Positions 5,327 to 32,720 of a stretch of 64,000 bases of DNA are shown here, piece after piece; position 1 is the stretch's first letter; the number at the start of each line of letters is the position of its first letter. A program made the translations under genes and the position numbers. Under the pieces are notes generated by a model. That model had not been told where the DNA came from and did no database searches. It saw nothing but the letters and a program-made list of their open reading frames with translations. The stretch is from Candidatus Parcubacteria bacterium (GTDB taxonomy: Bacteria; Patescibacteriota; Minisyncoccia; UBA6257; HR35): NCBI GenBank assembly GCA_026004495.1, contig BPJG01000001.1, positions 2,672 through 66,671 on the forward strand. The letters run 5' to 3'.

Positions 5327-7552
5327 ATGAAAAAATATATTTGTCCAATGGGATGTGTTAGTCCCCAAAATGAGCCTGGTGGTAATTGTCCTGTTTGTGG
5401 AATGCGACTTGTTGAGGTGGAAGAAAAACATAGAATAAGCAGAACTGACGCAGAACATACAGAACATATTAATATTGTTCGCATTGGTTCGCGTATAGTT
5501 CGCATCAGTTCGCGTTTTAAAAGAAAAGAATATAACGAGCATTTTGACAAACATCATGGACATCGAGCCGAAGATTTTCTTAAAAAATTTTGGCTTTGTT
5601 TAATTTTAACTATTTTTGTTATTTTTCTTTCTTTTGATTTTTTAAACCTAAATTTTTTTAGTCTACGTGAGTTTACATTTAGTCTGTTAAAGTCTGCGCT
5701 AGTTTTAATTTTTTCTTCAATTGTTTTCTTTTATGGTGGTTGGGTTTTTCTTGTTGGCGCTTATAGAGAAATCAAGAGCAAAAATCCAGGGATGATGACT
5801 TTAATTTCTTTAGCCATAACCTCAGCTTATGTTTATAGTGTGGTTTTAATGATACTTAATGTTGTTCGCATGAGTTTGCGGGTAAGTTCGCAAGAGTTCG
5901 CGGAAGTTGGTTTTTTCTGGGAACTTACTTCCTTAATTACGATTATGCTTTTAGGTCATTATTTTGAAATGAAATCAGTTTCTTCAGCTCAAAGAGCTTT
6001 GCAAGAAATAGAAAAATTATTGCCTGATACAGCTGAATTAGAAAGCGGTAAAATAATTCCTTTAAATGAATTAAAAGTTGATGATATTGTTTTAGTTCGG
6101 CCTGGAGGGAAAATTCCAGCTGATGGAGTTGTTGTTGAAGGTAAATCAGAAGTTAATGAAAGTATGATAACTGGTGAAAGCAGACCTATTTTAAAAGAAG
6201 TTGGTTCTGAAGTTATTACTGGGACAATTAATGGTGATGGAATCTTAAAAATCAAAGTAACTAAAATTGGTGAAGAAACATTTTTAGCTGGAATAAAAAG
6301 ATTAATTCAAGAAGCACAAAAATCCAAATCTAAACTTCAAGTTTTGGCTGATGTTTTTGCTAAATATTTAACTTTTATTGCTCTTGGAGTTGGTTCTTTA
6401 AGTTTTGTAATTTGGCTTTCGCTTCAAAAAGATTTTGCTTTTGTTTTAGAAAGATTAGTTACAGTTTTAGTTATTGCTTGCCCTCATGCTTTAGGCCTTG
6501 CTGTTCCTTTAGTTGTTGCTATTTCTACATCTTTAGCAATTCATAATGGTTTTTTAATCCGTAATAGTTTGCAATTAGAATTAGCCCGAAAAGTCGATGT
6601 TGTTCTCTTTGATAAAACCGGAACATTGACTAGCGGTAAATTTGTTGTAAAAGAGATTAAAAAATTAAATGATATTTCAGAGGAAAAAATTCTTCAAATT
6701 GCCGGCTCTTTGAATCAATATTCTCAACATTTTATTGCTCAAGGTATTTTAAGAAAAGTAAAGGAGCAAAGTATATCACTTTTACCTGTAAATGATTTCG
6801 AAAATTTAACTGGCCGAGGAGTTAAGGGTATAGTTGATGGTCAAATTTACTATCTAGGTGGTGATAATTTATTAAAAGAATTAAATTTAAAAGCACCAGA
6901 AATAGAAGGTGTTGGTACCATTGTTTATTTAATTGATGAGGGTAAAAATATTTTAGGAGCAATCATTTTAGAAGATGAAATAAGAAAAGAAGTAAAAGAA
7001 GCAGTTAAAGAGCTTCATCAACTTGGTATTAAAGTTTTGATGGTCACTGGAGATAAAAAAGAAGTTGCTGAAAAAGTTGCTAAAGAATTAGGAATTGATG
7101 AATATTTTGCTGAAGTTTTACCACAAGAAAAAGTTGAAAAAGTAAAAGAACTTCAACAGAAAGGATTAAAAGTAATGTTTGTTGGTGATGGAATTAATGA
7201 TGCTCCAGCTTTAATGCAAGCAGATGTTGGAGTTGTTATTGGCGCTGGAACGAATGTTGCCATTGAATCAGCAGGAATAATTTTAGTTAGAAATGACCCT
7301 CGAGATATTGTTAAATTAATAAAACTTTCAAAATTAACTTATCGCAAAATGATTGAAAATTTATTTTGGGCAACTGGCTATAATGTTGTTATGATTCCTC
7401 TTGCAGCAGGAATTTTCGAAATATTTAAAATGATTTTTTCTTTACCGGGTAGTGAATTTATTCTAATACCTGGGCCAGCAATTGGATCAATTTTAATGAG
7501 TCTATCCACAATCATTGTTAGTTTAAATGCTTTAAGAATGAGGAAGATATAA
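5327..7552 (+). CDS. copB: Heavy-metal (copper) translocating P1B-type ATPase
   Basis: N-terminal CPMGC...CPVCG metal-binding/zinc-ribbon-like motif and a His-rich stretch. CPH in TM6, DKTGTLT phosphorylation site and the GDGINDAPAL hinge. The copB versus copA assignment is tentative and rests on CPH plus the His-rich N-terminus. Confidence 0.85.
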   Translation: MKKYICPMGCVSPQNEPGGNCPVCGMRLVEVEEKHRISRTDAEHTEHINIVRIGSRIVRISSRFKRKEYNEHFDKHHGHRAEDFLKKFWLCLILTIFVIFLSFDFLNLNFFSLREFTFSLLKSALVLIFSSIVFFYGGWVFLVGAYREIKSKNPGMMTLISLAITSAYVYSVVLMILNVVRMSLRVSSQEFAEVGFFWELTSLITIMLLGHYFEMKSVSSAQRALQEIEKLLPDTAELESGKIIPLNELKVDDIVLVRPGGKIPADGVVVEGKSEVNESMITGESRPILKEVGSEVITGTINGDGILKIKVTKIGEETFLAGIKRLIQEAQKSKSKLQVLADVFAKYLTFIALGVGSLSFVIWLSLQKDFAFVLERLVTVLVIACPHALGLAVPLVVAISTSLAIHNGFLIRNSLQLELARKVDVVLFDKTGTLTSGKFVVKEIKKLNDISEEKILQIAGSLNQYSQHFIAQGILRKVKEQSISLLPVNDFENLTGRGVKGIVDGQIYYLGGDNLLKELNLKAPEIEGVGTIVYLIDEGKNILGAIILEDEIRKEVKEAVKELHQLGIKVLMVTGDKKEVAEKVAKELGIDEYFAEVLPQEKVEKVKELQQKGLKVMFVGDGINDAPALMQADVGVVIGAGTNVAIESAGIILVRNDPRDIVKLIKLSKLTYRKMIENLFWATGYNVVMIPLAAGIFEIFKMIFSLPGSEFILIPGPAIGSILMSLSTIIVSLNALRMRKI
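5438..5517. repeat. Intragenic GC-rich tandem-repeat mini-element: degenerate (CAGAAC)x3 followed by (GTTCGCnnn)x4, in-frame in the ATPase N-terminus
   Basis: ...cagaactgacgcagaacatacagaacat...gttcgcattggttcgcgtatagttcgcatcagttcgcg. Homologous to the element at 17918..18004. Confidence 0.8.
5862..5903. repeat. Second intragenic (GTTnGCnnn)x4 repeat inside the ATPase, between membrane segments
   Basis: gttcgcatgagtttgcgggtaagttcgcaagagttcgcg. Encodes VVRMSLRVSSQEFAE. Confidence 0.7.
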
Positions 7553-7555
7553 AAT
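7514..7555. repeat. 42-bp direct repeat, copy 1 (3' end of the ATPase gene including its stop codon)
   Basis: attgttagtttaaatgctttaagaatgaggaagatataaaat. Repeated at 8291..8332 with one mismatch. Confidence 0.85.
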
Positions 7556-7571
7556 AGTATATAATTAAGTT

Positions 7572-7883
7572 ATGGTAGAAGACATATCAAAACCAGATAG
7601 AGATAAAAAAGCAGAAGATTTAAGAAAGTTAGGATTTTCTAAGGAAGAAGCTATTAAATATTTATCAGCCAAATTTACATTAGAGACTTTAAAACAAAAA
7701 ATTAATTCTTTACAATCAGCTGGTTTTTCTAATCCTGTTAAATTAATAGAGGAACATCCTCAAATTGCTGGCCTTGATATTACTCGTGTTAAAATGAGAT
7801 TAAAATTAATTGATAGATTAAATAGAAAATTCAATCTTAATTATGATCCATATTCAATAGTAGAAAAATTCCACAATATTTAG
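7572..7883 (+). CDS. Hypothetical protein (inside the 735-bp segment bounded by the 42-bp direct repeats)
   Basis: ORF only. No recognisable motif. Confidence 0.4.
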   Translation: MVEDISKPDRDKKAEDLRKLGFSKEEAIKYLSAKFTLETLKQKINSLQSAGFSNPVKLIEEHPQIAGLDITRVKMRLKLIDRLNRKFNLNYDPYSIVEKFHNI

Positions 7884-7913
7884 GATATGATTTAGCGAGA
7901 ATCTTTTTTTTGT

Positions 7914-8280: not shown

Positions 8281-8290
8281 AATGTTAATA

Positions 8291-8332: not shown

Positions 8333-8333
8333 T

Positions 8334-10125: not shown

Positions 10126-10757
10126 ATAAACACAAATTGCAACGAATATATTACGAATGGCAACAAATAATTAAGATATTATTTTTAAGTTTTTTAATTC
10201 TCTTTTCTTTAAATTTTACTTTTGCTCACACTGAAGATGCTGAACTTAATACTGAAATTCAAAAGGGTAGAGAATTGGTTGAGAAATTTTATCGCGGTGA
10301 AATTAAATGCCAAGATTTAACCAATGAAGATTTTCATTCAGTTGGTGAATATGTAATGGAGCAGATGGTTGGTGGGAGTGATCATTTAACAATGAATAAA
10401 ATGATTGAACAAATGCATGGCAAAGAAGGAGAAGAATTGATGCATATTAATATGGGGAAAAGATTTTTAGGTTGTGAAACGCTAACATCTTCGAATTCTA
10501 GGCGAACTAATGCAAACAACTTCTTTATGATGCCGATGCATATGTGGGGTTCAAATTTTCCAATGATGGGTTATTGGCAAGGATGGTGGAATTTTACTAA
10601 TTGGAGAGGTTGGAATGTTTTAGTACCGATTTTTGGAATTTTAAGCTTTTTATGGCTTTTGATAATTTTATCTTTTCCAGTTTTAGTGTTAATTTTGCTT
10701 GTTTTGAGCATAGTTTATTTGATTAAAAAGTTAAGAAACGAAATTAAAAAAGAATAA
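10122..10757 (+). CDS. Met/His-rich membrane-anchored protein, putative copper-binding. A degenerate copy of the CGCAGAC element lies at ~10494-10520.
   Basis: Signal/TM segment, M/H-rich motifs (MMPMHMWGSNFPMMGYWQGWW) and a C-terminal TM. ATGA overlap with csoR. Confidence 0.5.
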   Translation: MNKHKLQRIYYEWQQIIKILFLSFLILFSLNFTFAHTEDAELNTEIQKGRELVEKFYRGEIKCQDLTNEDFHSVGEYVMEQMVGGSDHLTMNKMIEQMHGKEGEELMHINMGKRFLGCETLTSSNSRRTNANNFFMMPMHMWGSNFPMMGYWQGWWNFTNWRGWNVLVPIFGILSFLWLLIILSFPVLVLILLVLSIVYLIKKLRNEIKKE

Positions 10758-12449: not shown

Positions 12450-12931
12450 AAATGAAAAAGAATAATCTCTGGCTTTTAATTGGAATAATCTTGGGCGCTA
12501 TTTTGATTTTGTTAATTTCAAACAATTTGTCGTTAAAACCTTCAAATAAATTTTCAGGGATTAAAGCAAAAGTTTATTATCAAGAAAATTGTGGTTGTTG
12601 TAAAGAATATATTGACTATTTGAGAAGGAATGGATTTAATATAGAGACGCAGGTTATGAGTTTGGAAGAGTTAGATAGGAATAAAAAAGAGCTAAAAATT
12701 CCGGAAAGTTTGTACGCTTGCCACACAGTTTTAATCGGGGATTATTTTATTGAAGGCCATATTCCAATTGAAGCAATTCAAAAGCTTTTAACTGAAAAAC
12801 CAGACATTAATGGAATTGCTTTACCAGGAATGCCTTCAGGATCACCAGGAATGCCAGGCTTTAAAATCTATCCCTTCAAAATTCATTCAGTCAAAAATGG
12901 AGAAGATAAAGGAATATTTATGGAGATATGA
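12443..12931 (+). CDS. DUF411-family periplasmic metal (copper) resistance-associated protein
   Basis: Signal peptide, then the CGCCKEYIDYLRRNGFNIE motif (the CxCC motif of DUF411). Confidence 0.65.
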   Translation: MLKMKKNNLWLLIGIILGAILILLISNNLSLKPSNKFSGIKAKVYYQENCGCCKEYIDYLRRNGFNIETQVMSLEELDRNKKELKIPESLYACHTVLIGDYFIEGHIPIEAIQKLLTEKPDINGIALPGMPSGSPGMPGFKIYPFKIHSVKNGEDKGIFMEI

Positions 12932-12987
12932 ACGCAGACCTATGCGGACTACACGCAGACTTTCGCAGACAATAATAAATCGCAGAC
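12931..12987. repeat. (nnACGCAGAC)-type tandem-repeat mini-element, 5 units, immediately 3' of the DUF411 stop
   Basis: aacgcagacctatgcggactacacgcagactttcgcagacaataataaatcgcagac. Confidence 0.75.
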
Positions 12988-13270
12988 TAGTGGAGAAATT
13001 ATATTTGAAAATTTAATTAACGAAAAATGAAAATTGTTTTTTTATTAATTATAACAATTTTACCATTTTTTGCTTTTGCTCATTGTCCGTTGCGTACTTT
13101 ATCTTGATCTTATTTACTTTAAAACAAAGTCCCCAATCAACACTTCAAAAACTTCTTGAATGCTGTAAAAATTGGTAAAATTTAATTAATGATATAGATA
13201 TTCGCGATCTTAGTCTTTTAATTTTTAGTAATTAGAGTATTTTTTAATAACTTAAAAAAGAACAGAAAGA

Positions 13271-14434
13271 ATGAACAAAAAGAAAATCTTAGGAGTGAAT
13301 AAGAATGTTTTTTATTTAAGTTTAGTGAGTTTGTTTAATGATTTTTCAAGCGAGATGGTTTATTCAATTATGCCTGTTTTTTTAACCAGAGTTTTAGGTG
13401 CGCCAATTTGGTTTGTTGGTTTTTTAGAAGGATTTGCCGAGGCTTTAAATAATATTTTAAAAATTTTTTCAGGCAGATTAGCAGATTATCTCAATCGACG
13501 AAAAATTTTAGCAGTTTTTGGTTATTCAATTTCAACTTTGACAAGATTTTTTCTTTATTTAGTTAATAATTTTTGGCAAATTTTGGTTTTAAGAGTTTTA
13601 GATAGAGTAGGTAAGGGCCTGCGTGATGCTCCTAGAGATGCTTTAATTTATTTATTTTCAGAAAAAGAACAATTAAATAAATTATATAATTTTCATCGAG
13701 CCTTTGATACAATTGGAGCAATCTTAGGACCAATTGTTGGTTTTATTCTTTTAAATTATTTTCTTCAATTAAATTATAGATTATTATTTTTAATTGCTTC
13801 ACTTTTAGGCTTTTTAACAATTTTAACTTTTATTTTTGTTGAAGATAAAAAAGAAAATTATTCAAAAAATAAAAAATTTATTTTCAGTTTAAAAATTTTT
13901 CCAGCCAACTTAAAACTTTATTTAATTTCATTCTTTTTATTTTCTCTAGGCTATTTTCCTCTTTCATTTACTCTTTTAAGAATTCAAACAATTGATTCAA
14001 GTTTAAAAACATTACCACTTTTTTATTTTATCTTTAATTTCTTCTTTGTTATTTTTGCTTTCCCAATTGGTAAATTGGCTGATAAATATGGAGAAAGATT
14101 AATGTTAAAACTCGGATTTATTTTTGCTATTTTATCTTTTTTGATTTTTTCAATCCCTAATAATCTTTTAATTTTTCCAGCAATTGTTTTGCTTTCTTTA
14201 AGTTTAGCTTTGATTGATGGAATTAAAGTGGTTTATCTAGGTAAAAATATTGCTCAAGAATATTTGGCTACAGCTCAGGGTACTTTAAATTCTCTATATG
14301 GCTTTGGCCAACTTTTTGGCGGTTTAATTGGTGGCTTGATTTGGACAAAATTAAACTTTACTTATGCTTTTATTTATGGATGTTTTTTAATTCTAATGTC
14401 ATTAATATTAATTGATCTTGCTCTGAGAAAATAA
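13271..14434 (+). CDS. MFS-family transporter
   Basis: About 12 predicted TM segments and an MFS-like loop motif (LDRVGKGLRDAPRDALI). Confidence 0.7.
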   Translation: MNKKKILGVNKNVFYLSLVSLFNDFSSEMVYSIMPVFLTRVLGAPIWFVGFLEGFAEALNNILKIFSGRLADYLNRRKILAVFGYSISTLTRFFLYLVNNFWQILVLRVLDRVGKGLRDAPRDALIYLFSEKEQLNKLYNFHRAFDTIGAILGPIVGFILLNYFLQLNYRLLFLIASLLGFLTILTFIFVEDKKENYSKNKKFIFSLKIFPANLKLYLISFFLFSLGYFPLSFTLLRIQTIDSSLKTLPLFYFIFNFFFVIFAFPIGKLADKYGERLMLKLGFIFAILSFLIFSIPNNLLIFPAIVLLSLSLALIDGIKVVYLGKNIAQEYLATAQGTLNSLYGFGQLFGGLIGGLIWTKLNFTYAFIYGCFLILMSLILIDLALRK

Positions 14435-15187: not shown

Positions 15188-15529
15188 ATGATAATCACTC
15201 TTTCGAGTTTAATATCGCTTAATTTAATATTTTTTATTTATTTGATGACACGCAGATTTACGCAGACTACACGTAGAACTACGCAGACAGTTATTAAGTC
15301 AACATCCACAACCATCATTGGCACTTTATCAGCAATTTTTTCAGGAATTTTAGCAACTGCTTTCTGCTCTTCTTGTTTAGTTGCTTTATCTAGTATTTTA
15401 GGAATTAGCTTTGCTTTAGGAATTTTGCTTTTAAAATACAGATTTTGGATTTTTATTATCTCAATCATTATCCTTTTAATTTCTCTCCACCTCACTTCAA
15501 AAAAGATAAACAAAAATTGTAATCGCTAA
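15188..15529 (+). CDS. Small polytopic membrane protein with CSSC in a TM segment, carrying an in-frame CGCAGAC-element insertion (TRRFTQTTRRTTQT)
   Basis: Three or four hydrophobic segments and ATAFCSSCLVAL. The repeat at 15249..15289 lies inside the ORF. Confidence 0.4.
   Translation: MIITLSSLISLNLIFFIYLMTRRFTQTTRRTTQTVIKSTSTTIIGTLSAIFSGILATAFCSSCLVALSSILGISFALGILLLKYRFWIFIISIIILLISLHLTSKKINKNCNR
15249..15289. repeat. 41-bp (ACGCAGAnnn)x4 mini-element, near-identical to 31659..31699
   Basis: acgcagatttacgcagactacacgtagaactacgcagacag. Confidence 0.8.
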
Positions 15530-17176: not shown

Positions 17177-18538
17177 ATGAATATTTATGAAAACACATTA
17201 GCAAAAATAAAAAAATTAGCTAATCTATTAATAAAAATTGGTTACGATAAGATAAAAATTGAAGAATTGCTCAGATTTTTAATTTTACCACAAAGAATTA
17301 TTAAAGTTTTTATTCCCTTAAAAAGAGATAATGGTGAGTTAGAAATTTTTGAAGGCTATCGAGTTCAACATAATAATTTTTTAGGACCATATAAAGGAGG
17401 AATTAGATATTTTCCTGAAGTTAACGAAGACGAAATTAAAACTTTAGCTTTGCTTATGACATTGAAATGTGCTTTAGTTGATTTACCATTAGGTGGCGCT
17501 AAGGGAGGAATTAAAGTTGATCCAAAAAATTTATCTGAAACTGAATTAGAAAGACTTTCAAGAGAATATGTAAGAAAAATTTATGATTTTATTGGATCGG
17601 ATAAAGATATACCTGCTCCAGATGTAAATACTAATTCTAAAATTATGGGTTGGATGGTAGATGAATACATTAAAATAATACAGACTTACGCAGACTACAA
17701 GCAGACTAATGAAGAAAAAAATAAATTATTAGCAACTTTTACTGGAAAATCTCTTGAAAATGGAGGGATCGAAGGAAGAGAAGAGGCAACAGGTAAAGGT
17801 GGAGAAATTATTTTAAATAAATTGGTAAAAAAACTAAATTTGAATAAGAAAGAATTAACTGTTGCTATCCAAGGATTTGGCAATGTTGGTTATAATATTG
17901 CAAAATTTTTATATAGGACGCAGACCTTCGCAGACTATACGCAGACTAATGCAGACAATATAGATGTTCGCATAGGTTCGCGTGAAGGTTCGCATAAGTT
18001 TGCGAAATCAGAAATTTCTTACAAGATTATTGCTCTTTCTGATAGTAAAGGAGGAATTTATAGCAAAGAAGGTTTTAATCCAGAAATTGTGATGAAATGG
18101 AAAAAAGAAAAAGAGATGATAGGTCAAGATATAACTAATGAAGAAATTTTAGAACTTGATGTTGACATTTTAATTCCCGCTGCCCTGGAAAATGTAATAA
18201 CTAAAGATAATACCCATAGAATAAAAGCAAAAATAATTTTAGAAATGGCAAATAATCCAATAACTGAGGAGGCAGATGAAATTTTAAATCAAAAAGGAAT
18301 TATCGTTGTGCCTGATATTTTGGCAAATGCTGGTGGAGTAATTGTTTCTTATTTTGAAATGTTACAAAATATTGAAAATAGAAAATGGAGCAAAAAAGAA
18401 GTTTTTCAAAAATTAGAAGAACATCTAAGTAAGGCATTTGATAGGGTGTGGGAAACCTCAAAAAAACATAAAATATCATTAAGAAATTCAGGTATTTTAG
18501 TAGCCCTAAATAGATTATTAGAAAAATATAATTTTTAA
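17177..18538 (+). CDS. gdhA: Glutamate dehydrogenase (Glu/Leu/Phe/Val dehydrogenase family) carrying two in-frame repeat-element insertions
   Basis: LGPYKGGIRYFP, LPLGGAKGGIKVDP, GFGNVGYNIAKFL, ANAGGVIVSYFE. Insertions QTYADYKQTNEE and RTQTFADYTQTNADNIDVRIGSREGSHKFAK. Confidence 0.85.
   Translation: MNIYENTLAKIKKLANLLIKIGYDKIKIEELLRFLILPQRIIKVFIPLKRDNGELEIFEGYRVQHNNFLGPYKGGIRYFPEVNEDEIKTLALLMTLKCALVDLPLGGAKGGIKVDPKNLSETELERLSREYVRKIYDFIGSDKDIPAPDVNTNSKIMGWMVDEYIKIIQTYADYKQTNEEKNKLLATFTGKSLENGGIEGREEATGKGGEIILNKLVKKLNLNKKELTVAIQGFGNVGYNIAKFLYRTQTFADYTQTNADNIDVRIGSREGSHKFAKSEISYKIIALSDSKGGIYSKEGFNPEIVMKWKKEKEMIGQDITNEEILELDVDILIPAALENVITKDNTHRIKAKIILEMANNPITEEADEILNQKGIIVVPDILANAGGVIVSYFEMLQNIENRKWSKKEVFQKLEEHLSKAFDRVWETSKKHKISLRNSGILVALNRLLEKYNF
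17681..17707. repeat. (CAGACTnnn)x3 mini-element inside gdhA
   Basis: cagacttacgcagactacaagcagact. Confidence 0.75.
17918..18004. repeat. Composite ~87-bp mini-element inside gdhA: (CGCAGACnn)x4 + (GTTCGCnnn)x4
   Basis: gacgcagaccttcgcagactatacgcagactaatgcagacaatatagatgttcgcataggttcgcgtgaaggttcgcataagtttgcg. The 3' half aligns with 5471..5517. Confidence 0.85.
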
Positions 18539-20027: not shown

Positions 20028-20092
20028 AACTATTAAAAGTTATCATAAATGCATATGTTAGATAAAAATTAAAATTTAAATAAATAAAAAAA

Positions 20093-22605: not shown

Positions 22606-23535
22606 TTGATTAACTTAATGATATCTTTTAAAAATATAAAATTCAATTATGGATTTATTTGTTCTACCTATAAATCTTATTTATCAACAAATCATTCATT
22701 TCGTTTAAAAAACTTGAACAAAATAAATATTTTAAAAACAGTTGAAAAAAATTTAGAAGATTTTATCGAATTACTCAAATTAAGCAAAAAACTCAATTGT
22801 GGTATTTTTAGATTGGGCAGTCAATTTATACCCTTTGCCAGTCATCCAAATTTCAATAAAGAATGGCTAAAGGATATTAGGCAACTAATCAATAATTATT
22901 TAGAAGAAATAAAAAAATTTAACATAAGAATTACTATGCATCCTGGGCAATATACCATTTTATCAACAGAAAATAAATCTATCATTAAAAGATCACTAAA
23001 TGAAATAAAATATCATTTTTGGCTTTTAGATGAGCTGGAATTAAACGAAAATTCAATTGTAGTTATTCATCTTGGTGGTATTTATGGTGATAAAGAAAAA
23101 ACTAAAAAAATTTTCATAAAAAATGTAAAAATAAATAATTGGTTAAAATCAAGATTGGCTATAGAGAATGACGAAAGGTGTTATCACGCCAAAGAATTAA
23201 TTGAAATTGCCAAAGAATTATCTTTGCCTATTGTTTTTGATTGGTTCCATCATCAACTTAATCATTCTGTTTTTTCTCTAATAGATTTAATTGAAACTTG
23301 GGGCAATAGAACTCCAGAAATGCATATTTCTTCTGGATCAAAAATAAATAAATATGGCCATGCTGATTATGTTAATTTCAAAGATTTCTTAAATTTTTTA
23401 AGTTTTTTAAACGAAAATTCTAAATCACAAAAAATAAAAATTGACATTTTATTTGAAGCAAAAAAGAAAGAACTAGCGATAAAAAAATTTATTAATAACT
23501 GTAATAAATTTAGATTTTTAGAATGCGCTCAATAG
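22606..23535 (+). CDS. uvsE: UV DNA damage endonuclease UvdE/UvsE
   Basis: TMHPGQYTILST, VVIHLGG, LAIENDERCYHAKELIEIAKEL and VFDWFHH motifs of the UvdE TIM-barrel family. Confidence 0.75.
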   Translation: MINLMISFKNIKFNYGFICSTYKSYLSTNHSFRLKNLNKINILKTVEKNLEDFIELLKLSKKLNCGIFRLGSQFIPFASHPNFNKEWLKDIRQLINNYLEEIKKFNIRITMHPGQYTILSTENKSIIKRSLNEIKYHFWLLDELELNENSIVVIHLGGIYGDKEKTKKIFIKNVKINNWLKSRLAIENDERCYHAKELIEIAKELSLPIVFDWFHHQLNHSVFSLIDLIETWGNRTPEMHISSGSKINKYGHADYVNFKDFLNFLSFLNENSKSQKIKIDILFEAKKKELAIKKFINNCNKFRFLECAQ

Positions 23536-24824
23536 TATTATTTAAAAGGGATTTGAGGGCAGAGGATAACAAAGTTTTATATGAAGCTTTTAAAAACTCA
23601 AGGGAATTAATACCCATATTTATTTTTAATAAGTCCATTTTGAAAAAATTCAATAGTTATAATCAAAAGCTGGGTTTAATTATTGATGGTGTAAAAAAAT
23701 TATCAGAAAAAATTAATCTATATGTTTTTTATGGCGAAGATGATGAGGTTTTAGAATTTTTGTTTCTAAAATATAAACCTGATGCTTTATATACAGCTGA
23801 ATCTTTTTCTTGGCAAGGTGAAAAGAGAGATAAAGGGATAGAAAAATTATGTTTAAAATATAGAATTGGTTTTAATAAAATTTTTGATAATTTTTTAGTT
23901 AATTTTCGTTTGATACCATACAATAAAGTTTTTACTCCTTTTTATAAAAAGTGGTTAAATTTTATTGACAATCAAGAAGTAAATATAAATTTGAATGAAC
24001 TTAATAAAAAGATTTTAAATTTAAACTTAGATAAAATTGACGATTTGTTAATTAAAAATAAAGAGATAGATTATCAAAATAATATCTGGAACTATGAATT
24101 TGGTATTAAAAGATTAAAAGAGTTCAATTTCAAAGATTATGATAAAAATCGAAGTTTTCCTTCATTGGATGGAACATCAAAGCTTTCACCTTATATTAGA
24201 TTTGGCCTAATTTCAGTTAGAAAGATTTATAACTTAACATCAAAATTAAATCAATCTTATGTTCAAGAATTATCCTGGAGAGAATTTTGGTATCATATTA
24301 AATATAATTTTAATGATTTTAAAAATTTGGAATTTCAAGAAAAAAGAAGGAATATAAATTGGAATAATGATTCTAAATTATTAGATAAATTTTTAAATGC
24401 TCAAACTGGATATCCAATTGTAGATGCTGGAATTAGACAATTAAAAACTGAAAATTGGATGCACAACCGAGTGAGAATGATTGTTGCTAATTTTTTAACT
24501 AAAGATTTATTGATTGATTGGCGAATTGGAGAAAAATTTTTTAAAGACTATTTAATTGATTATGATGAAATAGTTAATGTTGGAAATTGGCAGTGGTGTG
24601 CTTCTGTTGGCCCAGATCCACGACCTTTAAGAATTTTTAATCCAATAATACAATCTGAAAAATTTGATCCTGAAGCCAACTATATTAAAACTTATATACC
24701 AGAATTAAAAAATATAAATCCAAAATTAATTCATAATCCACTTAAAAATAAATTATCATACTATAAACCGATAGTTAATCATTATGAACAAATACAAAAA
24801 ATTAAAAATCAATGGATAAATTAA
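23523..24824 (+). CDS. phr: Deoxyribodipyrimidine photolyase/cryptochrome family protein
   Basis: FAD-binding domain: GYPIVDAGIRQLKTENWMHNRVRMIVANFLTKDLLIDWRIGEKFF...NWQWCASVG. Confidence 0.85.
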   Translation: MRSIVLFKRDLRAEDNKVLYEAFKNSRELIPIFIFNKSILKKFNSYNQKLGLIIDGVKKLSEKINLYVFYGEDDEVLEFLFLKYKPDALYTAESFSWQGEKRDKGIEKLCLKYRIGFNKIFDNFLVNFRLIPYNKVFTPFYKKWLNFIDNQEVNINLNELNKKILNLNLDKIDDLLIKNKEIDYQNNIWNYEFGIKRLKEFNFKDYDKNRSFPSLDGTSKLSPYIRFGLISVRKIYNLTSKLNQSYVQELSWREFWYHIKYNFNDFKNLEFQEKRRNINWNNDSKLLDKFLNAQTGYPIVDAGIRQLKTENWMHNRVRMIVANFLTKDLLIDWRIGEKFFKDYLIDYDEIVNVGNWQWCASVGPDPRPLRIFNPIIQSEKFDPEANYIKTYIPELKNINPKLIHNPLKNKLSYYKPIVNHYEQIQKIKNQWIN

Positions 24825-25717
24825 TAAAAAATTTTTTAATAAAAATTATAGCTGAATTTAAATTCTTGATTAAAATTTCAAGATTTCGATTTTGGCTTTA
24901 TGAAGCTGGTACATTTTTTATAGGTTATTTAATTGCGGCACAAAGTTTGGGAGATTTTTTAAATTTAAATTTTTTAATTTATCTTTTTTATTTTCTTTTT
25001 CCAGCAAATCTTTTAATCTACGGAATTAATGATATCTTTGATTATGAAACTGACAAAAATAACCCTAAAAAGGCTGGTTATGAGAAATTACTTTTGCCAA
25101 AATATCACAAAGAAGTTTATTTTTACATTCTGATTTTTAATTTACCGTTTTTAATATATTCATTTTTAAATCTTAACTTAATCCAAAACCTCTTTTTCTT
25201 ATTATTTTTATTTTTTGCTATTTTTTATTCTGCCAAGCCAATCAGAGCAAAAACTATACCAATTTTAGATTCATTTTTTTCAGCCAGCCACTATGTTTTC
25301 ACTGGTATTTTTGGATATTATCTTATAGAAAGAGAAAACATCGAATTTCCAATTTTTGCTTTTGTTTTTGGTATTCTGTGGGCGATGGCAATGCATGCCT
25401 ATTCAGCTGTTCCGGACATAAAATTTGATAGGGAAGCAAAAGTATCAACTATTGCTACATTTCTTGGCGCTAAAAAAACAATAATTTTATGTCTATTACT
25501 TTATCTTTCCTCGTTTTTGATTTTATCTAATATAAAAAAAATCTTTATTTTAGGAGCTGTACCTTATTTAGTTCTAATGATTTTATCTTTAAAAAATTAT
25601 GATGATAATCAAAAAATAATGAAACTCTACAAATATTTTCCTTATATTAACACTATTTTACCGATGCTCTGGTCTATTTATTATATGACCGTTAAATTCG
25701 GAGTATTAAATTTCTGA
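24812..25717 (+). CDS. UbiA-family prenyltransferase (membrane). Probably carotenoid-related: a lycopene-elongase/hydratase-like role, inferred from context.
   Basis: NDIFDYETDKNNPKK (the Asp-rich UbiA motif) and ~8 TM segments. Adjacent to crtI, crtB and GGPPS. Confidence 0.55.
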   Translation: MDKLIKNFLIKIIAEFKFLIKISRFRFWLYEAGTFFIGYLIAAQSLGDFLNLNFLIYLFYFLFPANLLIYGINDIFDYETDKNNPKKAGYEKLLLPKYHKEVYFYILIFNLPFLIYSFLNLNLIQNLFFLLFLFFAIFYSAKPIRAKTIPILDSFFSASHYVFTGIFGYYLIERENIEFPIFAFVFGILWAMAMHAYSAVPDIKFDREAKVSTIATFLGAKKTIILCLLLYLSSFLILSNIKKIFILGAVPYLVLMILSLKNYDDNQKIMKLYKYFPYINTILPMLWSIYYMTVKFGVLNF

Positions 25718-27205
25718 AATAGGTCCTCCTTTCCTAATATTTAGAATCTTTTTATAAACAATCTGTCCGGAAACTAAAACCATTGGCACCCCAATCCCTG
25801 GGTAAGTATACTGACCAACATAATATAAATTTTTTACTTTTTTGCTTTTAATTTTGGGTCTAAAAAGCGTTTGTTTTAAATCATGAATAATTCCTAAAGC
25901 TGTCCCTTTATAAGCATTATAATCTCTTATAAAATCAAAAGGAGTATATATTCTTTCAAATTCAATCAAATCTTTAATGTTTTTAATATCAAATTTCTCT
26001 TCTATAGTTTTATAAATTTTTTCTTTAAATATATTTATTGACTCTTGATTTAAGTATTTTCCATTAGATATTGGAACTAAAATAAACAGCTGATCTTTAT
26101 TTTTAGGTGAGACAGTCGGATCACTCTTTGAAGCTGAACAAATATAAAAAGATGGATCATCTGGAAGATTGTTGTAGTTGAAAATTTGTTTAAAATTTAA
26201 ATCCCAATTTTTGGAAAAATAAAAATTATGATGAATAAATTGGTCTAATTTTTCTTTAAGTCCTACATAAAGGATAAATCCAGAAGGAGCTAATTCTAAT
26301 TTTTTAAAATAATCTTCATTATAATCTCGGTATTCTCTCTCTAATAAATTAATTTGGGTATGAAATAAATCAGCGTTTGAGATAACATAGTCAGCTAAAA
26401 TAGTTTCGCCGTTCTCTAATAAAACTCCCTTAACCTCACTATCTTCAACTAAAATTTTTTTAACTGGTGTGTTATTGAATAATTTAGCATTGTTTTCTTT
26501 TAAAATCTGTAGTAGAGCTTGAACAATTTTATAAATTCCCCCAAGTGGATAAAAGACTCCCTGTTTAAATAAAAAATAATTAATAATTCCATATACCGAT
26601 GGCGCTTTTTTAGGGTCTGTTCCTAAAAATAGAAAATCAAACTCTAATATTTTCAAAATTTTTTCGTTTTTAAATATATTCTTTAGCTTATTATGAGCAC
26701 TAGCGATAGGATTTATTTTTAAAAAAATACTAAAAAATTTTGGATTAACTAATCCTAACAAAGAATTGATGTCATTAAAAATATACTCATTTTTTATTAT
26801 CTTATATATCTTTTCTTGTAAATTTATGTATTCCTTTATCTTTTCAAAAGAACCCTTTTCTAAATTTTCAAAAGTTTCTCTGTTTACATCTAGTTCAGAA
26901 TAAATTGTTACACTCGTTTTATCGTCAAAAACTATTTTAAATGATGGATCTAGTTTTATAATGCTTAGTTCTTTATAAAAATCTTTATTAAATAATTTAA
27001 AAAAATCTTCAAAAATATCTTCCATCAAGATCCAAGATGGACCCATATCAAACAAATGACCATTACCATTAAAGAAATTTACTCTCCCTCCAAAATTTTG
27101 ATTTTTTTCGAAAATTAATACTTCAAATCCTTTTTTGGCAAGCAATGCCCCGACAGACAATCCACCTATCCCCGAACCAATAATAATTACTCTCTTCTTT
27201 TTCAT
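25706..27205 (-). CDS. crtI: Phytoene desaturase-family FAD oxidoreductase (CrtI/CrtN-like)
   Basis: N-terminal IIIGSGIGGLSVGALLAKKGFEVLIFEKNQNFGGR dinucleotide-binding motif. About 500 aa. Confidence 0.75.
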   Translation of the reverse strand: MKKKRVIIIGSGIGGLSVGALLAKKGFEVLIFEKNQNFGGRVNFFNGNGHLFDMGPSWILMEDIFEDFFKLFNKDFYKELSIIKLDPSFKIVFDDKTSVTIYSELDVNRETFENLEKGSFEKIKEYINLQEKIYKIIKNEYIFNDINSLLGLVNPKFFSIFLKINPIASAHNKLKNIFKNEKILKILEFDFLFLGTDPKKAPSVYGIINYFLFKQGVFYPLGGIYKIVQALLQILKENNAKLFNNTPVKKILVEDSEVKGVLLENGETILADYVISNADLFHTQINLLEREYRDYNEDYFKKLELAPSGFILYVGLKEKLDQFIHHNFYFSKNWDLNFKQIFNYNNLPDDPSFYICSASKSDPTVSPKNKDQLFILVPISNGKYLNQESINIFKEKIYKTIEEKFDIKNIKDLIEFERIYTPFDFIRDYNAYKGTALGIIHDLKQTLFRPKIKSKKVKNLYYVGQYTYPGIGVPMVLVSGQIVYKKILNIRKGGPISEI

Positions 27206-27211
27206 TGATAT

Positions 27212-28072
27212 TCAGTATTTGTTAGTGATAAAATTTAATAGTGTTTTTAAAAAACTAGAAAATTTTCTTCTAGCTCTTAATTTATAACTAAAACTAAAAA
27301 CATCATATTGATTATTCTTTATTTCATCTAAAATTGAACTATATAATTTTGAGGCATACAATACTGAAAAACGAACTTTGGACGGTAAAATTTTTATACC
27401 TTGATTTGCTTTTTTATACATATTAAAGTTAATCTCAATTAAATATTTTATCAAATCTCTGAAGTTTTTATTAGAATTAAAATCAAAAAAATCTTTTTCG
27501 GTAATATTAAATCTAGAATAAATTTCTTCAGGAATGTAAATTCTGTTTAATCTTAAATCTTCCTTAATATCTCTGATGAAATTTGTTAATTGCATCGCTT
27601 CAGCTAAAGCAGCTGCATATTCTTTTAATTCCTCTCTAAAGTAATCAAAAATGTAAAGCATAAAATAACCAACAACTACTGCCGAACCGAATATATATTC
27701 TTTTAATTCATCAAATGTTTTAATCCTTACTGGCTTTAAATCATATCTCATACTTCTGATAAATGCTTCAATATATTCCATATCAATATTTTTCTCTTTA
27801 ACTATTTCATAAAATAAATTTAACTCTTCAAACTTTGATTCTCTTCCGTTTATCACATTTAACCATTCTGATTCCCATTCCTTAAATTTTTCTATTTTCT
27901 CTTCCACGGTTAAATTAAAATCATCAACAATATTATCAAGCCGACGAACAAAAGCATATAAAATTATTACCTGATTTCTAATTTTTTTAGGAAAAAATAA
28001 GGTGGCGTAATAATAATGTTTTCCATAAGAAAACATTACCTTTTTAAGTTTCTGTTCAATTTTTTGATTCAT
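27212..28072 (-). CDS. crtB: Phytoene/squalene synthase family (CrtB/CrtM)
   Basis: YYATLFFPKKIRNQVIILYAFVRRLDNIVDD ... YAAALAEAMQLTNFIRDIKEDLRLNRIYIPEE. Confidence 0.75.
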   Translation of the reverse strand: MNQKIEQKLKKVMFSYGKHYYYATLFFPKKIRNQVIILYAFVRRLDNIVDDFNLTVEEKIEKFKEWESEWLNVINGRESKFEELNLFYEIVKEKNIDMEYIEAFIRSMRYDLKPVRIKTFDELKEYIFGSAVVVGYFMLYIFDYFREELKEYAAALAEAMQLTNFIRDIKEDLRLNRIYIPEEIYSRFNITEKDFFDFNSNKNFRDLIKYLIEINFNMYKKANQGIKILPSKVRFSVLYASKLYSSILDEIKNNQYDVFSFSYKLRARRKFSSFLKTLLNFITNKY

Positions 28073-29097
28073 TGCTGTCGTTGATGTATTAAATTTAAAA
28101 GATAATCTAAATTATTTTTGAGTTTTTTATTTTTTATTTGATTAATTAAGATTTTTGCCTTTTTATGATTCAGGTTAATTTCATTCTGAATATATTTATC
28201 AACTTTATTTTTAAAAATTAATTCATTTAAAAATTTTTTTTCTTGATAGTTTAGCTTTTTATAAAAGAGTTTTTTCATGATTGCCCCATATTTAGTTTTA
28301 TTTAATAAATAATAGGTAATATAAGTTTTTTGGCCTTCTTTAATATCATTAAATCTATCTTTGTCTTGTTTTGATAAATAATAATCAAATAAATCATCTT
28401 GAATTTGAAAAATATTACCAATTAAAAATCCAATTTTTTTTATTTTTTCAATTTCTTTTTTATTTAGATTGCAAAAAATGCTAGCAATAGTCATTGGCCT
28501 GACAAAGGTGTAGCTTGCCGTTTTTAGGAGATTTTTATTTTTGATATCATTAATATTTGAATTTAATTTGGGTTCATTGGCTAAATATAAATCTAAAAAT
28601 TGTCCAACCAAAACTTCATTAATCATGATATAAAATTCATTTTTAATTTGAGGCGGCAGATTTGAGATATGATTATAAAAAATATTAAAAATAATATCGC
28701 TTAGTAAAATGCTTACATTATTTGAATAATCTCTTTTATTTTTTGGATTATAAAGTTTTGAATTTTGAAAAATAAATTCATTTAAAGTTAAAATCTCTCT
28801 TCTGGTTTTAGCTTTATCCATAACATCATCTTGAATTAGGGCAAATAAATGAATTAATTCTAGGGCAATCATTATTTTGAAACCATTTTGATCAATTTTT
28901 TTATTTAAAGATTTTAGAATCAAATAAAAAATAAACGGTCTAAGACGTTTGCCTTCTTTTGCTAAAGAAATGATGTGATCGAAATATAGTTTTAGATCTA
29001 GATTTTTAATAAAAACAAAATCCTTTTTCAATTTTTGATTAAGAAATTTAATGAATTTTTTATCAAAATTCTTTTTAAATTTATTAATATTCATCAT
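28069..29097 (-). CDS. Polyprenyl diphosphate synthase (GGPP synthase-like)
   Basis: Two Asp-rich motifs, LIQDDVMD and QIQDDLFDY. Confidence 0.75.
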   Translation of the reverse strand: MMNINKFKKNFDKKFIKFLNQKLKKDFVFIKNLDLKLYFDHIISLAKEGKRLRPFIFYLILKSLNKKIDQNGFKIMIALELIHLFALIQDDVMDKAKTRREILTLNEFIFQNSKLYNPKNKRDYSNNVSILLSDIIFNIFYNHISNLPPQIKNEFYIMINEVLVGQFLDLYLANEPKLNSNINDIKNKNLLKTASYTFVRPMTIASIFCNLNKKEIEKIKKIGFLIGNIFQIQDDLFDYYLSKQDKDRFNDIKEGQKTYITYYLLNKTKYGAIMKKLFYKKLNYQEKKFLNELIFKNKVDKYIQNEINLNHKKAKILINQIKNKKLKNNLDYLLNLIHQRQQ

Positions 29098-29797: not shown

Positions 29798-29817
29798 TAT
29801 TTATTTCAATATTGTTT

Positions 29818-31005: not shown

Positions 31006-31193
31006 TTAACTTATTTAAATTTTTTTATAATACTTATCTGAGAATCAAAAGAGTAAGGCATATTTCTTAAACTAACTATTGTGATACAAAGATACACATT
31101 ATTATTTTTTTAATAAAAATTAAAATTATTATGTAATTAAATTCTTTAGTTACAAAAATTACAAATAAATTATAATTATATTATAATAAGTCA

Positions 31194-32720
31194 TTGTACA
31201 AAAAATGTTTTAAAATGAAGTATTTTAAATATTTTTTTAATCTATTACTTACTCTGATTATTTTTGCGTTTTTTATCTTATTAATATTTAATTCACAAAT
31301 CAAAAAATTATTTTTTAAACCTCAAGAAATTATTGGCCAAAAATTAGAACAGTTAAAAAATGATAGTGATTTTGAAATTATTCTAGAAAATTTAGAAATT
31401 CCTTGGTCGATTATTTTTTTAAATCAAAATGAAATTTTAATTACTGAAAGACTAGGTAAGATAAAAATTTTAGAATTAAAAGATAAAAAATTAGTAAAAG
31501 AATTTAAAATAACACAAGTAAAACATATTGGCGAAGGAGGACTCTTAGGCACAACTCTGCATCCAAATTTTAAAGAAAATAATTTTATCTATTTTTATTA
31601 CACAACTGAAAAAAGTGGAAATTTAATTAATCGGGTTGAAAGATATACTTTAAAAATAAACGCAGATTTACGCAGACTGAACGCAGACTTACGCAGACAA
31701 GATAAAAATTATTATTTAACTAAAGATAAGATTATTTTAGATGATATTCCAGCTGGTAGATTTCATAATGGGGGAAGAATAAAATTTGGTCCCGATGGTT
31801 ATTTATATATAACAACTGGAGATGCCGGTAATTCAGAAAATTCTCAAAATATCAATTCTTTAGCTGGGAAAATTTTAAGATTAAAAGATGATGGTTCAAT
31901 TCCCAAAGATAATCCATTTAAAAATGCAATTTTTGCTTATGGAATTAGAAATTCTCAAGGAATTACTTGGGACGATGAAGGCAATTTATGGTCAATTGAC
32001 CATGGAAGGTCAGGAATTCAAACAGGATTAGATGAAATAAATCTAATTCAAAAGGGTAAAAATTATGGTTGGCCAGTTATTCAAGGAAATGAAAGAATGA
32101 AGGAAATGGAATCTCCAGTTATTCACTCAGAACCAAATATCACTTGGGCACCGGCAGATTTGATTTATTATAACAATTCTTTATTTTTTACTGGCTTAAG
32201 AGGTGAAGGTTTATATCAATATGATTTAATTAATAAAAAATTAAAAGTTAATTTTTTCCAAAAATTTGGAAGATTAAGGGCTATAACTTTAGGACCAGAT
32301 GGTTATTTTTATATTTCAACTTCAAATAGAGATGGAAGAGGTTATCAAAGAAAAGGTGATGATAAAATAATAAAAATTAATCCTGAAATATTTTTTGATT
32401 TTATAAATTATAATTTAGAAGGCAAAAATTATAAACTTTTAATTGCTAATGAACCATTAGAATGGAGCAGGGGATTAATGTTTGTAAAAAAGACACTAAA
32501 TAATAAAGAAAATAAATTTGACGGTATGATTTTTATTTTCCCTGATAAACAAACTAGATCTTTTTGGAACAAAAATACTTTTGTTGATTTAGATATTTAT
32601 TGGTTAGATGATAATAAAATTGTTGGTAAAGACTTTTTGCCTTCAATTGAAAAAACAAAAGAAATCTATACTCTAATTTCTCCAGCACCAGTAAATAAAG
32701 TAATTGAAATAATAAAATGA
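31194..32720 (+). CDS. PQQ-dependent soluble sugar (glucose/sorbosone) dehydrogenase beta-propeller domain fused to a C-terminal DUF192 domain. Carries an in-frame CGCAGAC-element insertion.
   Basis: GEGGLLG, FGPDGYLYITTGD, IFAYGIRNSQGITWDDEGNLWSIDHG and C-terminal ...DGMIFIFPDKQTRSFWNKNTFVDLDIYWLD (DUF192). Insert NADLRRLNADLRRQ. Confidence 0.65.
   Translation: MYKKCFKMKYFKYFFNLLLTLIIFAFFILLIFNSQIKKLFFKPQEIIGQKLEQLKNDSDFEIILENLEIPWSIIFLNQNEILITERLGKIKILELKDKKLVKEFKITQVKHIGEGGLLGTTLHPNFKENNFIYFYYTTEKSGNLINRVERYTLKINADLRRLNADLRRQDKNYYLTKDKIILDDIPAGRFHNGGRIKFGPDGYLYITTGDAGNSENSQNINSLAGKILRLKDDGSIPKDNPFKNAIFAYGIRNSQGITWDDEGNLWSIDHGRSGIQTGLDEINLIQKGKNYGWPVIQGNERMKEMESPVIHSEPNITWAPADLIYYNNSLFFTGLRGEGLYQYDLINKKLKVNFFQKFGRLRAITLGPDGYFYISTSNRDGRGYQRKGDDKIIKINPEIFFDFINYNLEGKNYKLLIANEPLEWSRGLMFVKKTLNNKENKFDGMIFIFPDKQTRSFWNKNTFVDLDIYWLDDNKIVGKDFLPSIEKTKEIYTLISPAPVNKVIEIIK
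31659..31699. repeat. 41-bp (ACGCAGAnnn)x4 mini-element, near-identical to 15249..15289
   Basis: aacgcagatttacgcagactgaacgcagacttacgcagaca. Confidence 0.8.

Follow-up and report, generated by a model that had tools for sequence, protein, structure and literature searches.

Results

GC-rich arrays in unrelated genes

The window analysed here is a 64,000-nucleotide stretch of DNA (contig BPJG01000001.1, assembly GCA_026004495.1) from a metagenome-assembled genome (MAG) of a Candidatus Parcubacteria bacterium, which belongs to the candidate phyla radiation (CPR, or Patescibacteria). CPR bacteria account for a large share of bacterial diversity and have tiny, gene-dense genomes; to our knowledge, almost nothing has been described of their mobile DNA besides phages and rRNA introns. 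In the window, short arrays of a recurring 8-mer lie inside or directly beside open reading frames (ORFs) for a CopA-type P-type ATPase, a Met-rich protein, a DUF411 protein (where the copy is 3′ of the stop codon), a small membrane protein, a glutamate dehydrogenase (GDH, encoded by gdhA) and a GSDH-type sugar dehydrogenase (Table 1). An earlier note on this DNA had listed these sites as tandem repeats inserted in frame within unrelated genes. All of the sites are present, either exactly where the note had placed them or a few bases away, and each listed island is GC-rich as stated, at 41–52% GC compared with 25.5% across the window.

The abundance of these motifs in the window is well beyond that expected from dinucleotide-preserving shuffles. 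CGCAGAC occurs 14 times against an expectation of 0.21 (0 of 100 shuffles were as high), GTTCGC occurs 15 times against 3.45, and the 8-mer ACGCAGAC, allowing at most one mismatch, occurs 26 times against 5.0. All ten exact copies of ACGCAGAC fall within arrays, and outside the arrays its near matches (at most one mismatch) are at the level of chance (6 versus 5.0 ± 2.1). The copies in the small membrane protein and sugar dehydrogenase genes, which had been singled out as alike, match at 35 of 41 positions (85%). The note had also attributed two spurious antisense ORFs to the repeats; the ORF at 5282..5563 is indeed antisense, whereas that at 12810..13016 uses an alternative frame of the + strand.

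Table 1. Positions, make-up and hosts of the element copies in the window.
Positions	Strand	Make-up	Host and reading
5438..5467	+	Degenerate A-like units AGCAGAACtg ACGCAGAACat ACAGAACAT	CopA N-terminal linker
5468..5518	+	51-nt insertion: linker ATTAATATT, B module GTTCGCATtgGTTCGCGTataGTTCGCATcaGTTCGCGT, TTT	CopA, encodes INIVRIGSRIVRISSRF
5655..5700	-	Possible degenerate reverse A module agtctacgtg/agtttacatt/tagtctgtta/aagtctgcgc (uncertain)	copA, encodes FFSLREFTFSLLKSAL
5862..5903	+	B module GTTCGCATgaGTTTGCGGgtaaGTTCGCAAgaGTTCGCGG	CopA loop (site 3), encodes VVRMSLRVSSQEF
10479..10520	-	Degenerate reverse B-like units GTTAGCGT, GTTCGCCT, GTTTGCAT	Met-rich protein
12932..13023	+	~92-nt insert: A module (4 units), linker AATAATAAA, extra unit, AT-rich tail	Intergenic
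15250..15288	+	A module	Small membrane protein, read as TRRFTQTTRRTTQT
17678..17706	+	Three A units (QTYADYKQT)	gdhA, turn between two helices
17918..18005	+	Composite: A module, linker AATATAGAT, B module	gdhA
31656..31706	+	51-nt insertion, solo A module	GSDH-type sugar dehydrogenase, read as (K)INADLRRLNADLRRQD

Modules of four phased units

The arrays contain two types of unit. Type A is ACGCAGAC and type B is GTTCGCRT, which is an imperfect inverted copy of type A (GTTCGCGT versus GTCTGCGT); in general terms, the unit is an 8-mer of the ACGCNGAC type that lacks a tetranucleotide head. The near-complementarity of CGCAGAC and GTTCGCG described previously amounts to five Watson–Crick pairs, one G-U and one A-C. 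Description of the arrays as tandem repeats has to be revised, as they are not open-ended; rather, four units form a module with start-to-start spacings of 10-11-10 nt in A and 10-11/12-10 nt in B, where 10-11-10 is approximately one turn of the DNA helix. The 39–40-nt module core consists of two half-modules of 21 nt (seven codons), and the period of 21 assigned by Tandem Repeats Finder (TRF) corresponds to internal 21-nt duplications. Copies from the window and those from other, independent CPR genomes almost all have exactly four units (at least 20 independent copies), the plan recurs in metagenome loci, and the spacers differ between units. A recurring AT-rich linker, AATATWGAT (seen as AATATAGAT, AATATTGAT, AATAATAAA and AATATTAAA), connects a module to an inverted module, as in the 87-nt gdhA composite and the CopA N-terminal composite, or connects direct modules. 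Other metagenome loci have a nested plan of about 190 nt (A ×4, X ×4, X′ ×4, A′ ×4), in which X stands for another unit, TTACCCGGAT, that keeps the four-unit format.

Pairing between the two arms of a composite follows a distinct pattern. In 18 composite detections, the arms are Watson–Crick paired in 72–100% of cases at unit positions 1–4 and 6–8, but in only 10% at the central position 5, where the usual pair is A.C (G.T in the other orientation). The two arms therefore consist of different unit variants, each 8-bp helix between them has a mismatch at its centre, and the element has a polarity. Folded as single-stranded DNA, the GTCTGCGT...ACGCGGAC strand gives z-scores of −5.8 to −7.0 and the ACGCAGAC strand folds more weakly (z −2.5 to −3.2); the A/B composite of the window has no significant DNA fold on either strand (z −1.1 and −1.9). 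With RNA parameters, composites form long imperfect hairpins in which unit i pairs with unit 5−i (z −3.6 to −5.1), consistent with the earlier proposal that the two halves can pair in RNA. Solo A modules are unstructured (z ~0).

Several other families of 8–10-mer units share the four-unit, 10/11-nt format, including TTACCCGGAT/ATCCGGGTAA, ATCACGAAT and units that encode TDQFG or PYxSV. Examples are found at L195 (8231–8418 and 13757–13946), L240, L141 (292–448), P0003 (GDH site 1) and P0150/P0151 (CopA), often nested within A/A′ arms. Several such families may exist, with that of ACGCAGAC as one of them.

Empty sites and turnover among relatives

We compared the window site by site with the syntenic 22-kb region of GCA_026004515.1, where orthologs are 80–90% identical. 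Three inserts are found only in the window. The 51-nt CopA cassette at 5468..5518 is missing from the relative's ortholog, where the empty site reads acagaacat/aaaagaaaag (slash, junction) and there is no target-site duplication (TSD); the gdhA composite, together with AAATCAGAAATTTCT, stands in place of nine nucleotides of the empty site, for a net gain of 96 nt (32 amino acids); and the 92-nt insert starts immediately after the DUF411 stop codon, with an empty site of gagatatga/aaaatgaaaa in the relative. Inserts of the same family are found only in GCA_026004515.1 within CopA (46 amino acids), a 362-residue protein (19 and ~55 amino acids) and DUF411 (57 amino acids). The density of arrays is alike in the two genomes, 2.3 per 10 kb, and their positions differ.

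Other relatives give the same picture. The GSDH-type gene has a clean difference of 17 amino acids (51 nt) from the ortholog in HR35, comprising one A module, with flanks about 85% identical and an empty site of ACT TTA AAA/AAT TAT; no arrays are present in the 20 kb of HR35 examined. The GDH orthologs nearest to that of the window (HR35, HR34 and others; 424–427 amino acids) do not have the composite and are missing 32 amino acids. Compared with solved structures, GDH residues 245–273 (29 amino acids) have no counterpart, and there is a second gap of 10 residues at the 17681 site. The empty sites in GSDH, CopA and GDH bear out the claim that the arrays are insertions in unrelated genes, and the comparison that had been proposed, of whether all relatives carry the same segment, shows that close relatives do not.

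Older sites that are shared between relatives decay or vary in the number of units (P0004 GDH versus the window; CopA site 3). In CopA, the degenerate copy at 5438..5467 is an older insertion common to the two closest relatives (R-x-x-RTDxEHTEH), the array at 5655..5700 is also found in relatives, and site 3 is a 13-amino-acid (39-nt) insertion in the clade P0121–P0126 that is missing from P0128–P0139. At GDH site 1 (17678 in the window), HR35 has two units, the window has three and L254 has about six. The ortholog of the small membrane protein in the relative (L122, 4156–4605) has conserved flanks around an insert of 54 amino acids, compared with 14 here. The Met-rich protein does contain a degenerate array, as reported, but insertion is not demonstrable there, as the segment is of equal length in a close relative.

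Across different CPR lineages, four different positions in GDH hold the same DNA units, representing independent insertions. In P0095/P0096 a full (ACGAAC)n – ACGCAGAC ×2 – GTTCGY ×4 element precedes the GxGxxG motif, and P0099 has two B modules at another position. Because of the empty sites, the reciprocal inserts and the decay of shared copies, we favour mobile nucleotide-level elements over ancient conserved peptides.

Elements can themselves be interrupted. In GCA_026004515.1, one GC-rich hairpin-like segment breaks an A module in two genes (CopA, L254 11306–11416; GDH P0004, L122). Its DNA, CGGGCAGTAGAGC(A/G)AAG(C/T)ACACTGCC..., encodes RAVE(Q/R)STLPD(P/T)EP..., and the segment represents an insertion of second order within the element. 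A further small GC hairpin lies within an element in DUF411 (L254 16880–16905).

We rejected the idea that the copy at 12931, which is flanked by TGGAGATAT and TGGAGAAAT, had truncated the DUF411 gene, as the relative's protein has the identical end, ...GIFMEI. Adjoining this element, at 13027–13175, are the remnants, next to each other, of two genes that are intact in the syntenic relative: the N-terminal 23 amino acids of a 199-residue membrane protein and the C-terminal 22 amino acids of a 143-residue protein (...LQKLLECCKNW). These are followed by a major facilitator superfamily (MFS) transporter gene (13271–14434) that the relative does not have, indicating a deletion or replacement event next to the 12932 element.

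One repeat, three reading frames

The peptide specified by the same repeat DNA is TQT/xAD, RR/TQT or xAD/LRR according to the frame, and all three readings occur in window genes (TQTFADYTQTNADN in gdhA, TRRFTQTTRRTTQT in the small membrane protein and NADLRRLNADLRRQ in the sugar dehydrogenase). As one DNA is used in three frames, here and in other phyla, conservation is at the level of nucleotides and not of protein, in agreement with what had been noted from the window.

In an AlphaFold2 model of GDH (alignment of 44 sequences; mean predicted local distance difference test (pLDDT) score 89.6), the composite insert is the sole segment with a pLDDT below 50 (residues 250–277). It is looped out of the dinucleotide-binding domain between helix 236–247 and strand 281–289, which answers the question of whether inserts map to surface loops for this enzyme; the smaller insert is in the turn between helices 154–171 and 178–185, with a pLDDT of about 72. 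The Pfam match to the GDH catalytic domain is split into two stretches around the insert. Based on this model and on the continuity of the frames, the inserts are most likely translated as disordered surface loops, with FLYRTQTFADYTQTNADNIDVR as an example of a predicted peptide spanning an insert junction. Removal in the manner of introns or inteins is unlikely: the inserts are multiples of three, they have no stops in the frame used and they are continuous with the host frame.

Distribution beyond the window

We scanned metagenomes with a query that specified 24 bases, namely three units in a row at the 10/11-nt register, and found at least 120 matching loci. Removal of microsatellites and GC-rich arrays leaves at least 68 canonical modules in loci below 50% GC, at least 49 of which are within ORFs of at least 450 nt. 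Among the matches listed, an open frame extending at least 150 nt on both sides crosses 35 of 46 adequately flanked modules, compared with 56% of random positions in the same loci. Of these 35 modules, 29 have ACGCAGAC in the sense orientation and 6 in the antisense orientation, and about 70% of the sense copies listed are in the TQT/xAD frame. Among the species-representative genomes listed as matches, those with canonical modules in long ORFs comprise, among others, two MAGs of Candidatus Saccharibacteria, Candidatus Pacebacteria and several 'bacterium' MAGs that are unclassified.

A scan of genome contigs for three CGCAGAC units mostly yielded 9- or 12-nt codon repeats of GC-rich genomes, with CPR matches recovered by sorting on GC; the source genome was not among the matches listed. 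Recognisable signatures are present in roughly 5–10% of the CPR GDH and CopA orthologs that we retrieved, and the 8-mer and linker recur as in the window in an unrelated metagenome (L207). BLAST found no match to the composite among plasmids and phages, and a scan of viral contigs gave, among the matches listed, only exact 11-nt tandem repeats that share the 8-mer, not the 10-11-10 module. The latter are in AT-rich contigs (27–37% GC; L245–L253 from IMG/VR, also L127 and L145), where (ACGCAGACGAA)×3–4 lies inside ORFs and is read ...NADETQTKRRR...

We noted three further groups of loci. Desulfobacterales and other deltaproteobacterial MAGs (L001, L003, L045, L050, L055, L078, L106, L143, L235 and others) have a distinct MITE-like repeat (MITE, miniature inverted-repeat transposable element) consisting of TTAGC-CGCAGACnnnCGCAGACnnnCGCAGAC, a GGCCGACCnGGCC-type hairpin and a GCCC-TTCG-GGGC hairpin; its triple arrays form inverted pairs 99–366 nt apart, it has a 7-mer in common with the CPR elements and it has no Rfam match. 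Loci of 52–59% GC that are Bacteroidota-like (L027, L101, L130, L131, L134, L137, L169, L183, L187 and L200) have intergenic-looking repeats of the form ttttacctc-ACGCAGACctACGCAGACtcACGCAGAC-tttccgcagac, and two genome matches to these are Sphingobacteriaceae and Bacteroidales MAGs. At L189, L204, L209 and L231, an A module comes right after a stop codon and a small GAGTAC-loop hairpin (N4-GAGTAC-N4′), on the same strand as the gene upstream; this subclass may be a 3′-end element.

Discussion

A proposed family of in-frame insertion elements

We propose that the arrays are probably a family of short, GC-rich, non-autonomous repeats that has proliferated in the CPR and that resembles, in function, the Rickettsia palindromic elements (RPEs) and those MITEs that are found inserted in genes. 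The data are best read as a new RPE/MITE-like family of selfish elements that insert in frame: module-plus-linker units of 51 nt, or composites, fill sites that are empty in close relatives, the reverse is also seen, and copies sit in unrelated genes as well as in intergenic gaps. Because cassettes are gained and lost at unrelated sites, decay, and are patchily distributed, we interpret them as selfish repeat DNA and not as serving a host function.

Several features of the elements could be accounted for by a simple scheme. Insertion may be more or less indiscriminate, and in a gene-dense genome the surviving copies would be only those that are multiples of three, free of stops, located in surface loops and coding for hydrophilic residues. 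Such a filter would explain both the sense-strand bias and the preference for the TQT/xAD frame. Weak mRNA structure may also be selected, as ACGCAGAC in the sense orientation would give the mRNA the weaker, A.C-mismatched hairpin. The helically phased 8-mers may be recognition sites for a putative oligomeric DNA-binding enzyme acting in trans. Classical DDE cut-and-paste transposition is disfavoured because of solo-arm insertion, the lack of TSDs and strand polarity; the routes left would be a single-strand (HUH-like) process, a serine-recombinase-like process, or recombination or template switching.

A number of observations weigh against this interpretation. In Pfam searches of ~39 window ORFs and of 10 ORFs of L195, the densest locus, none matched a transposase, a recombinase, a reverse transcriptase or an HUH enzyme. 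No autonomous element flanked by modules was found, with A...A′ distances of only 4–30 nt and 113 nt, and no autonomous insertion sequence (IS) with related ends was found among ~250 loci or in the window. The TSD test was non-significant, as flanking direct repeats average 4.6 nt compared with 4.1 ± 1.3 nt (n=9), and the GSDH junction has an ambiguous TAAAA/ATAAA repeat. Solo modules insert alone (GSDH, CopA), which is unusual for MITEs that depend on terminal inverted repeats. No near-identical pairs of copies were seen; the 8-mers hold their identity and the spacers diverge, which could mean that a host function keeps the 8-mers under selection. Every well-formed copy in the window is on the + strand, at once the coding strand of the host genes and the G-rich strand, so a function linked to transcription or replication is inseparable from selection on the peptide. 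Lastly, the DNA covered here is 64 kb out of a 634-kb genome.

The window also encodes a type III restriction–modification pair, Mod (N6_N4_Mtase) at 46600–49197 and Res (ResIII/helicase) at 50425–53304. Type III enzymes have short asymmetric recognition sites and depend on the orientation of those sites.

On a broader and more speculative view, which we hold only tentatively and think rather doubtful as it stands, the elements would be a pan-CPR class of mobile DNA: a 17-codon cassette (linker plus four phased 8-mers) that integrates without terminal inverted repeats or TSDs, forms polar mismatched palindromes, relies on trans-acting machinery and is a general source of surface loops. The machinery might be, for example, a strand-specific single-stranded DNA enzyme, a templated-synthesis process or a process linked to DNA uptake.

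Alternative explanations

It is unlikely, in our judgement, that the arrays are instead motif arrays recognised by the host (super-sites for an uptake receptor, a Chi-like signal, or centromere/partition-type sites for ribbon-helix-helix (RHH) proteins) and spread by natural transformation and homologous replacement, that is, by molecular drive, without transposition. Conservation of the 8-mer across CPR phyla with drifting spacers agrees with this idea, and helical phasing of 10-11-10 nt is typical of arrays whose units are all contacted from the same side of the helix. It is also compatible with the strong orientation bias, with the failure to find a transposase, TSD or autonomous element, and with the tandem copies of the shared 8-mer in AT-rich viral contigs. 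CPR bacteria are believed to rely on taking up DNA. However, uptake and Chi sequences, where known, occur mostly as scattered single copies, and single 8-mers outside the arrays are not over-represented (6 versus 5.0 ± 2.1); moreover, 20 kb of the close relative HR35 contain no arrays, orthologous copies decay, and the first entry of a 51-nt cassette into a gene is left unexplained.

Expansion in situ would require no dedicated machinery. Under this explanation, which we regard as improbable, slippage or unequal recombination would enlarge a minisatellite-like repeat that spreads by ectopic gene conversion or template switching. Unit numbers do vary at particular sites (2, 3 and ~6 at GDH site 1; 14 versus 54 amino acids in the small membrane protein), the modules are internal 21-nt duplications by TRF, new modules often adjoin older ones (the CopA B module beside degenerate A units; nested composites) and there is no TSD. 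Slippage, however, leads to variable numbers of near-identical units, whereas four units are fixed across phyla in at least 20 copies, even if some sites vary. In addition, the GSDH site acquired a complete 51-nt module with no seed unit in the empty allele, slippage by a single unit would cause a frameshift as the 10/11-nt period is no multiple of a codon, and the shared 8-mer and linker recur in unrelated metagenomes such as L207.

It is quite improbable that the arrays act at the RNA level, as protein-binding sites or structures in mRNA that affect stability, translation speed or termination and are kept for that purpose. Three observations point this way: A modules within ORFs are mostly sense (29 versus 6 antisense, among the matches listed), five intergenic copies directly follow a stop codon and a small hairpin, on the same strand as the gene upstream, and the A/B composite of the window has a significant fold only with RNA parameters (z −3.8 and −3.6, versus −1.1 and −1.9 as DNA). 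Yet solo A modules have no structure (z ~0), and the better hairpin of heterotypic composites is on the strand opposite ACGCAGAC, so it is usually outside the mRNA. No Rfam family matches; at the gathering threshold, Rfam 15 detects only tRNAs and RNase P RNA in the window and 13 loci, with no overlap with the elements. The elements are also patchy among close relatives, where copies decay, and the TQT/xAD frame bias shows that selection on the peptide alone can yield an orientation bias.

The idea that these are protein modules, low-complexity peptides selected for protein function with DNA similarity as a by-product, has in its favour the ~70% of sense copies (among the matches listed) in the TQT/xAD frame and the hydrophilic, loop-compatible residues; it is effectively refuted by the three unrelated peptides that one DNA yields in three genes of one genome and by empty orthologous sites, and intergenic copies and the predicted disorder of the inserts further oppose it. 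An assembly or sequencing artefact, which the earlier note had raised and in support of which we found nothing, can be set aside, as frame-preserving copies are present in independent assemblies from several projects and sources (NCBI, JGI and ENA) and orthologous copies have diverged in relatives.

Comparison with known repeat families

A full-text search found no published description of the arrays; its coverage was incomplete, so an earlier description is possible. RPEs, the nearest analogue on record, are ~150 bp in length, form ten sequence families, are frequently inserted in frame and encode one conserved peptide per family (PMC10969869). The analogy with RPEs drawn previously is apt, with the differences already given there: both are short palindromic repeats in a reduced AT-rich genome, in frame in many unrelated genes with peptides compatible with the fold, and neither has a known transposase or mobilisation mechanism (for RPEs, PMC10969869). 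In-frame, fold-compatible insertion into unrelated genes is seen here in the empty sites, the open frames and the GDH loops. In contrast to RPEs, the elements described here are 39-nt modules of four phased 8-mers, occurring as solo modules, inverted composites (87–190 nt) or direct concatenates; their unit sequence is common to several CPR phyla; and they use three frames instead of one per family (PMC10969869), a distinction drawn from the published description of RPEs.

MITEs and similar repeats (Coxiella QMITE1, intragenic ERIC/RU and BOX) are likewise small, multi-copy, non-autonomous and sometimes intragenic with an open frame (PMC10969869, PMC2759123, PMC5896051). They differ in being defined by terminal inverted repeats, TSDs and a related autonomous IS, whereas here solo arms insert: composites have inverted arms, but solo A and solo B modules have no partner arm, and no TSD of fixed length is found, with none at the CopA junction. 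The likeness to REP (repetitive extragenic palindromic) sequences and REPINs lies in imperfect palindromes of ~90–110 nt with two inverted halves, strand asymmetry of the hairpin, a lack of TSDs and an orientation bias (PMC3733652). REPs are described as extragenic single hairpins of 20–40 nt with a GTAG/CGTC head and a RAYT (IS200/IS605-like Y1) gene alongside, whereas the elements here are mostly intragenic, have 4+4 phased 8-mers and lack such a head. Pfam finds no Y1_Tnp domain in the ORFs searched in the window and in L195, and the elements do not show the extragenic location, the tetranucleotide head or, in these ORFs, the RAYT gene of a REP/REPIN–RAYT system.

The GC clusters of yeast mitochondria are mobile, palindromic and rich in GC, form islands in a genome that is otherwise very AT-rich, and can sit in frame within a protein gene. 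Our elements share these properties with them, although GC clusters belong to the organelle of an unrelated organism, have another sequence and do not have the plan of four 8-mers. PARCELs are also intragenic repeat DNA with dyad symmetry that has spread horizontally among small-genome microbes, but they are a tandem 25-residue protein motif, defined by a protein hidden Markov model (HMM), in ORFs of unknown function (PMC2996958), whereas the present elements are defined by DNA, use three frames and lie in conserved enzymes. We also considered guide arrays of the TIGR or CRISPR kind and rejected them, as in our arrays it is the 8-mer that is conserved, and no more than 2–3 nt vary. We rate the elements as kin of the known in-frame palindromic repeat elements and the modular architecture of phased 8-mers as apparently new; the mechanism, too, has a fair chance of being new.

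If the family is abundant, it writes disordered loops of 14–60 residues into conserved enzymes (GDH, CopA, the sugar dehydrogenase, YchF-adjacent genes and others). This would account for many of the insertions by which CPR orthologs are lengthened and which confuse alignments, HMM domain calls and gene calling, as in the GDH catalytic domain split by Pfam and the spurious overlapping ORFs. The elements would also be a natural experiment on how proteins tolerate insertions, and a strain-level marker, since close relatives differ at most sites. Their architecture, with phased 8-mers, polar mismatched arms, solo-arm insertion and no TSD, is outside the known paradigms of bacterial transposition, and the conserved 8-mer array could serve as bait for the protein that recognises it.

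Other features of the window

All copies are in the first half of the window (5438–31706), with none in 32000–64000, which is also mostly on the + strand. The second half is not obviously more essential, and the probability of such clustering by chance is ~0.05 for six host genes. Local hopping or regional tolerance could produce this pattern; we rejected essentiality as the cause of the absence from 32–64 kb, as that half also encodes transporters and the restriction system.

The minus-strand ORF 57628–59805 contains a 120-bp tandem repeat (57763–58318; 4.6 copies, 91% identity). Its 725-residue product has a weak match to Recep_L_domain (leucine-rich-like), and the repeat is an ordinary codon-multiple repeat unrelated to the elements. 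Two tandem DUF5667 paralogs lie at 18603–21772, the second of which carries a Kazal domain as well; a duplicated segment occurs in both (18972–19009 and 20462–20499), and the first has a 96-bp repeat of 1.9 copies (19679–19862). Finally, at 22606–29097 this CPR genome has light- and UV-related genes near genes of isoprenoid/carotenoid type, encoding a UvdE endonuclease, a DNA photolyase, a UbiA prenyltransferase, a phytoene-desaturase-like amine oxidase, a squalene/phytoene synthase and a polyprenyl synthetase.

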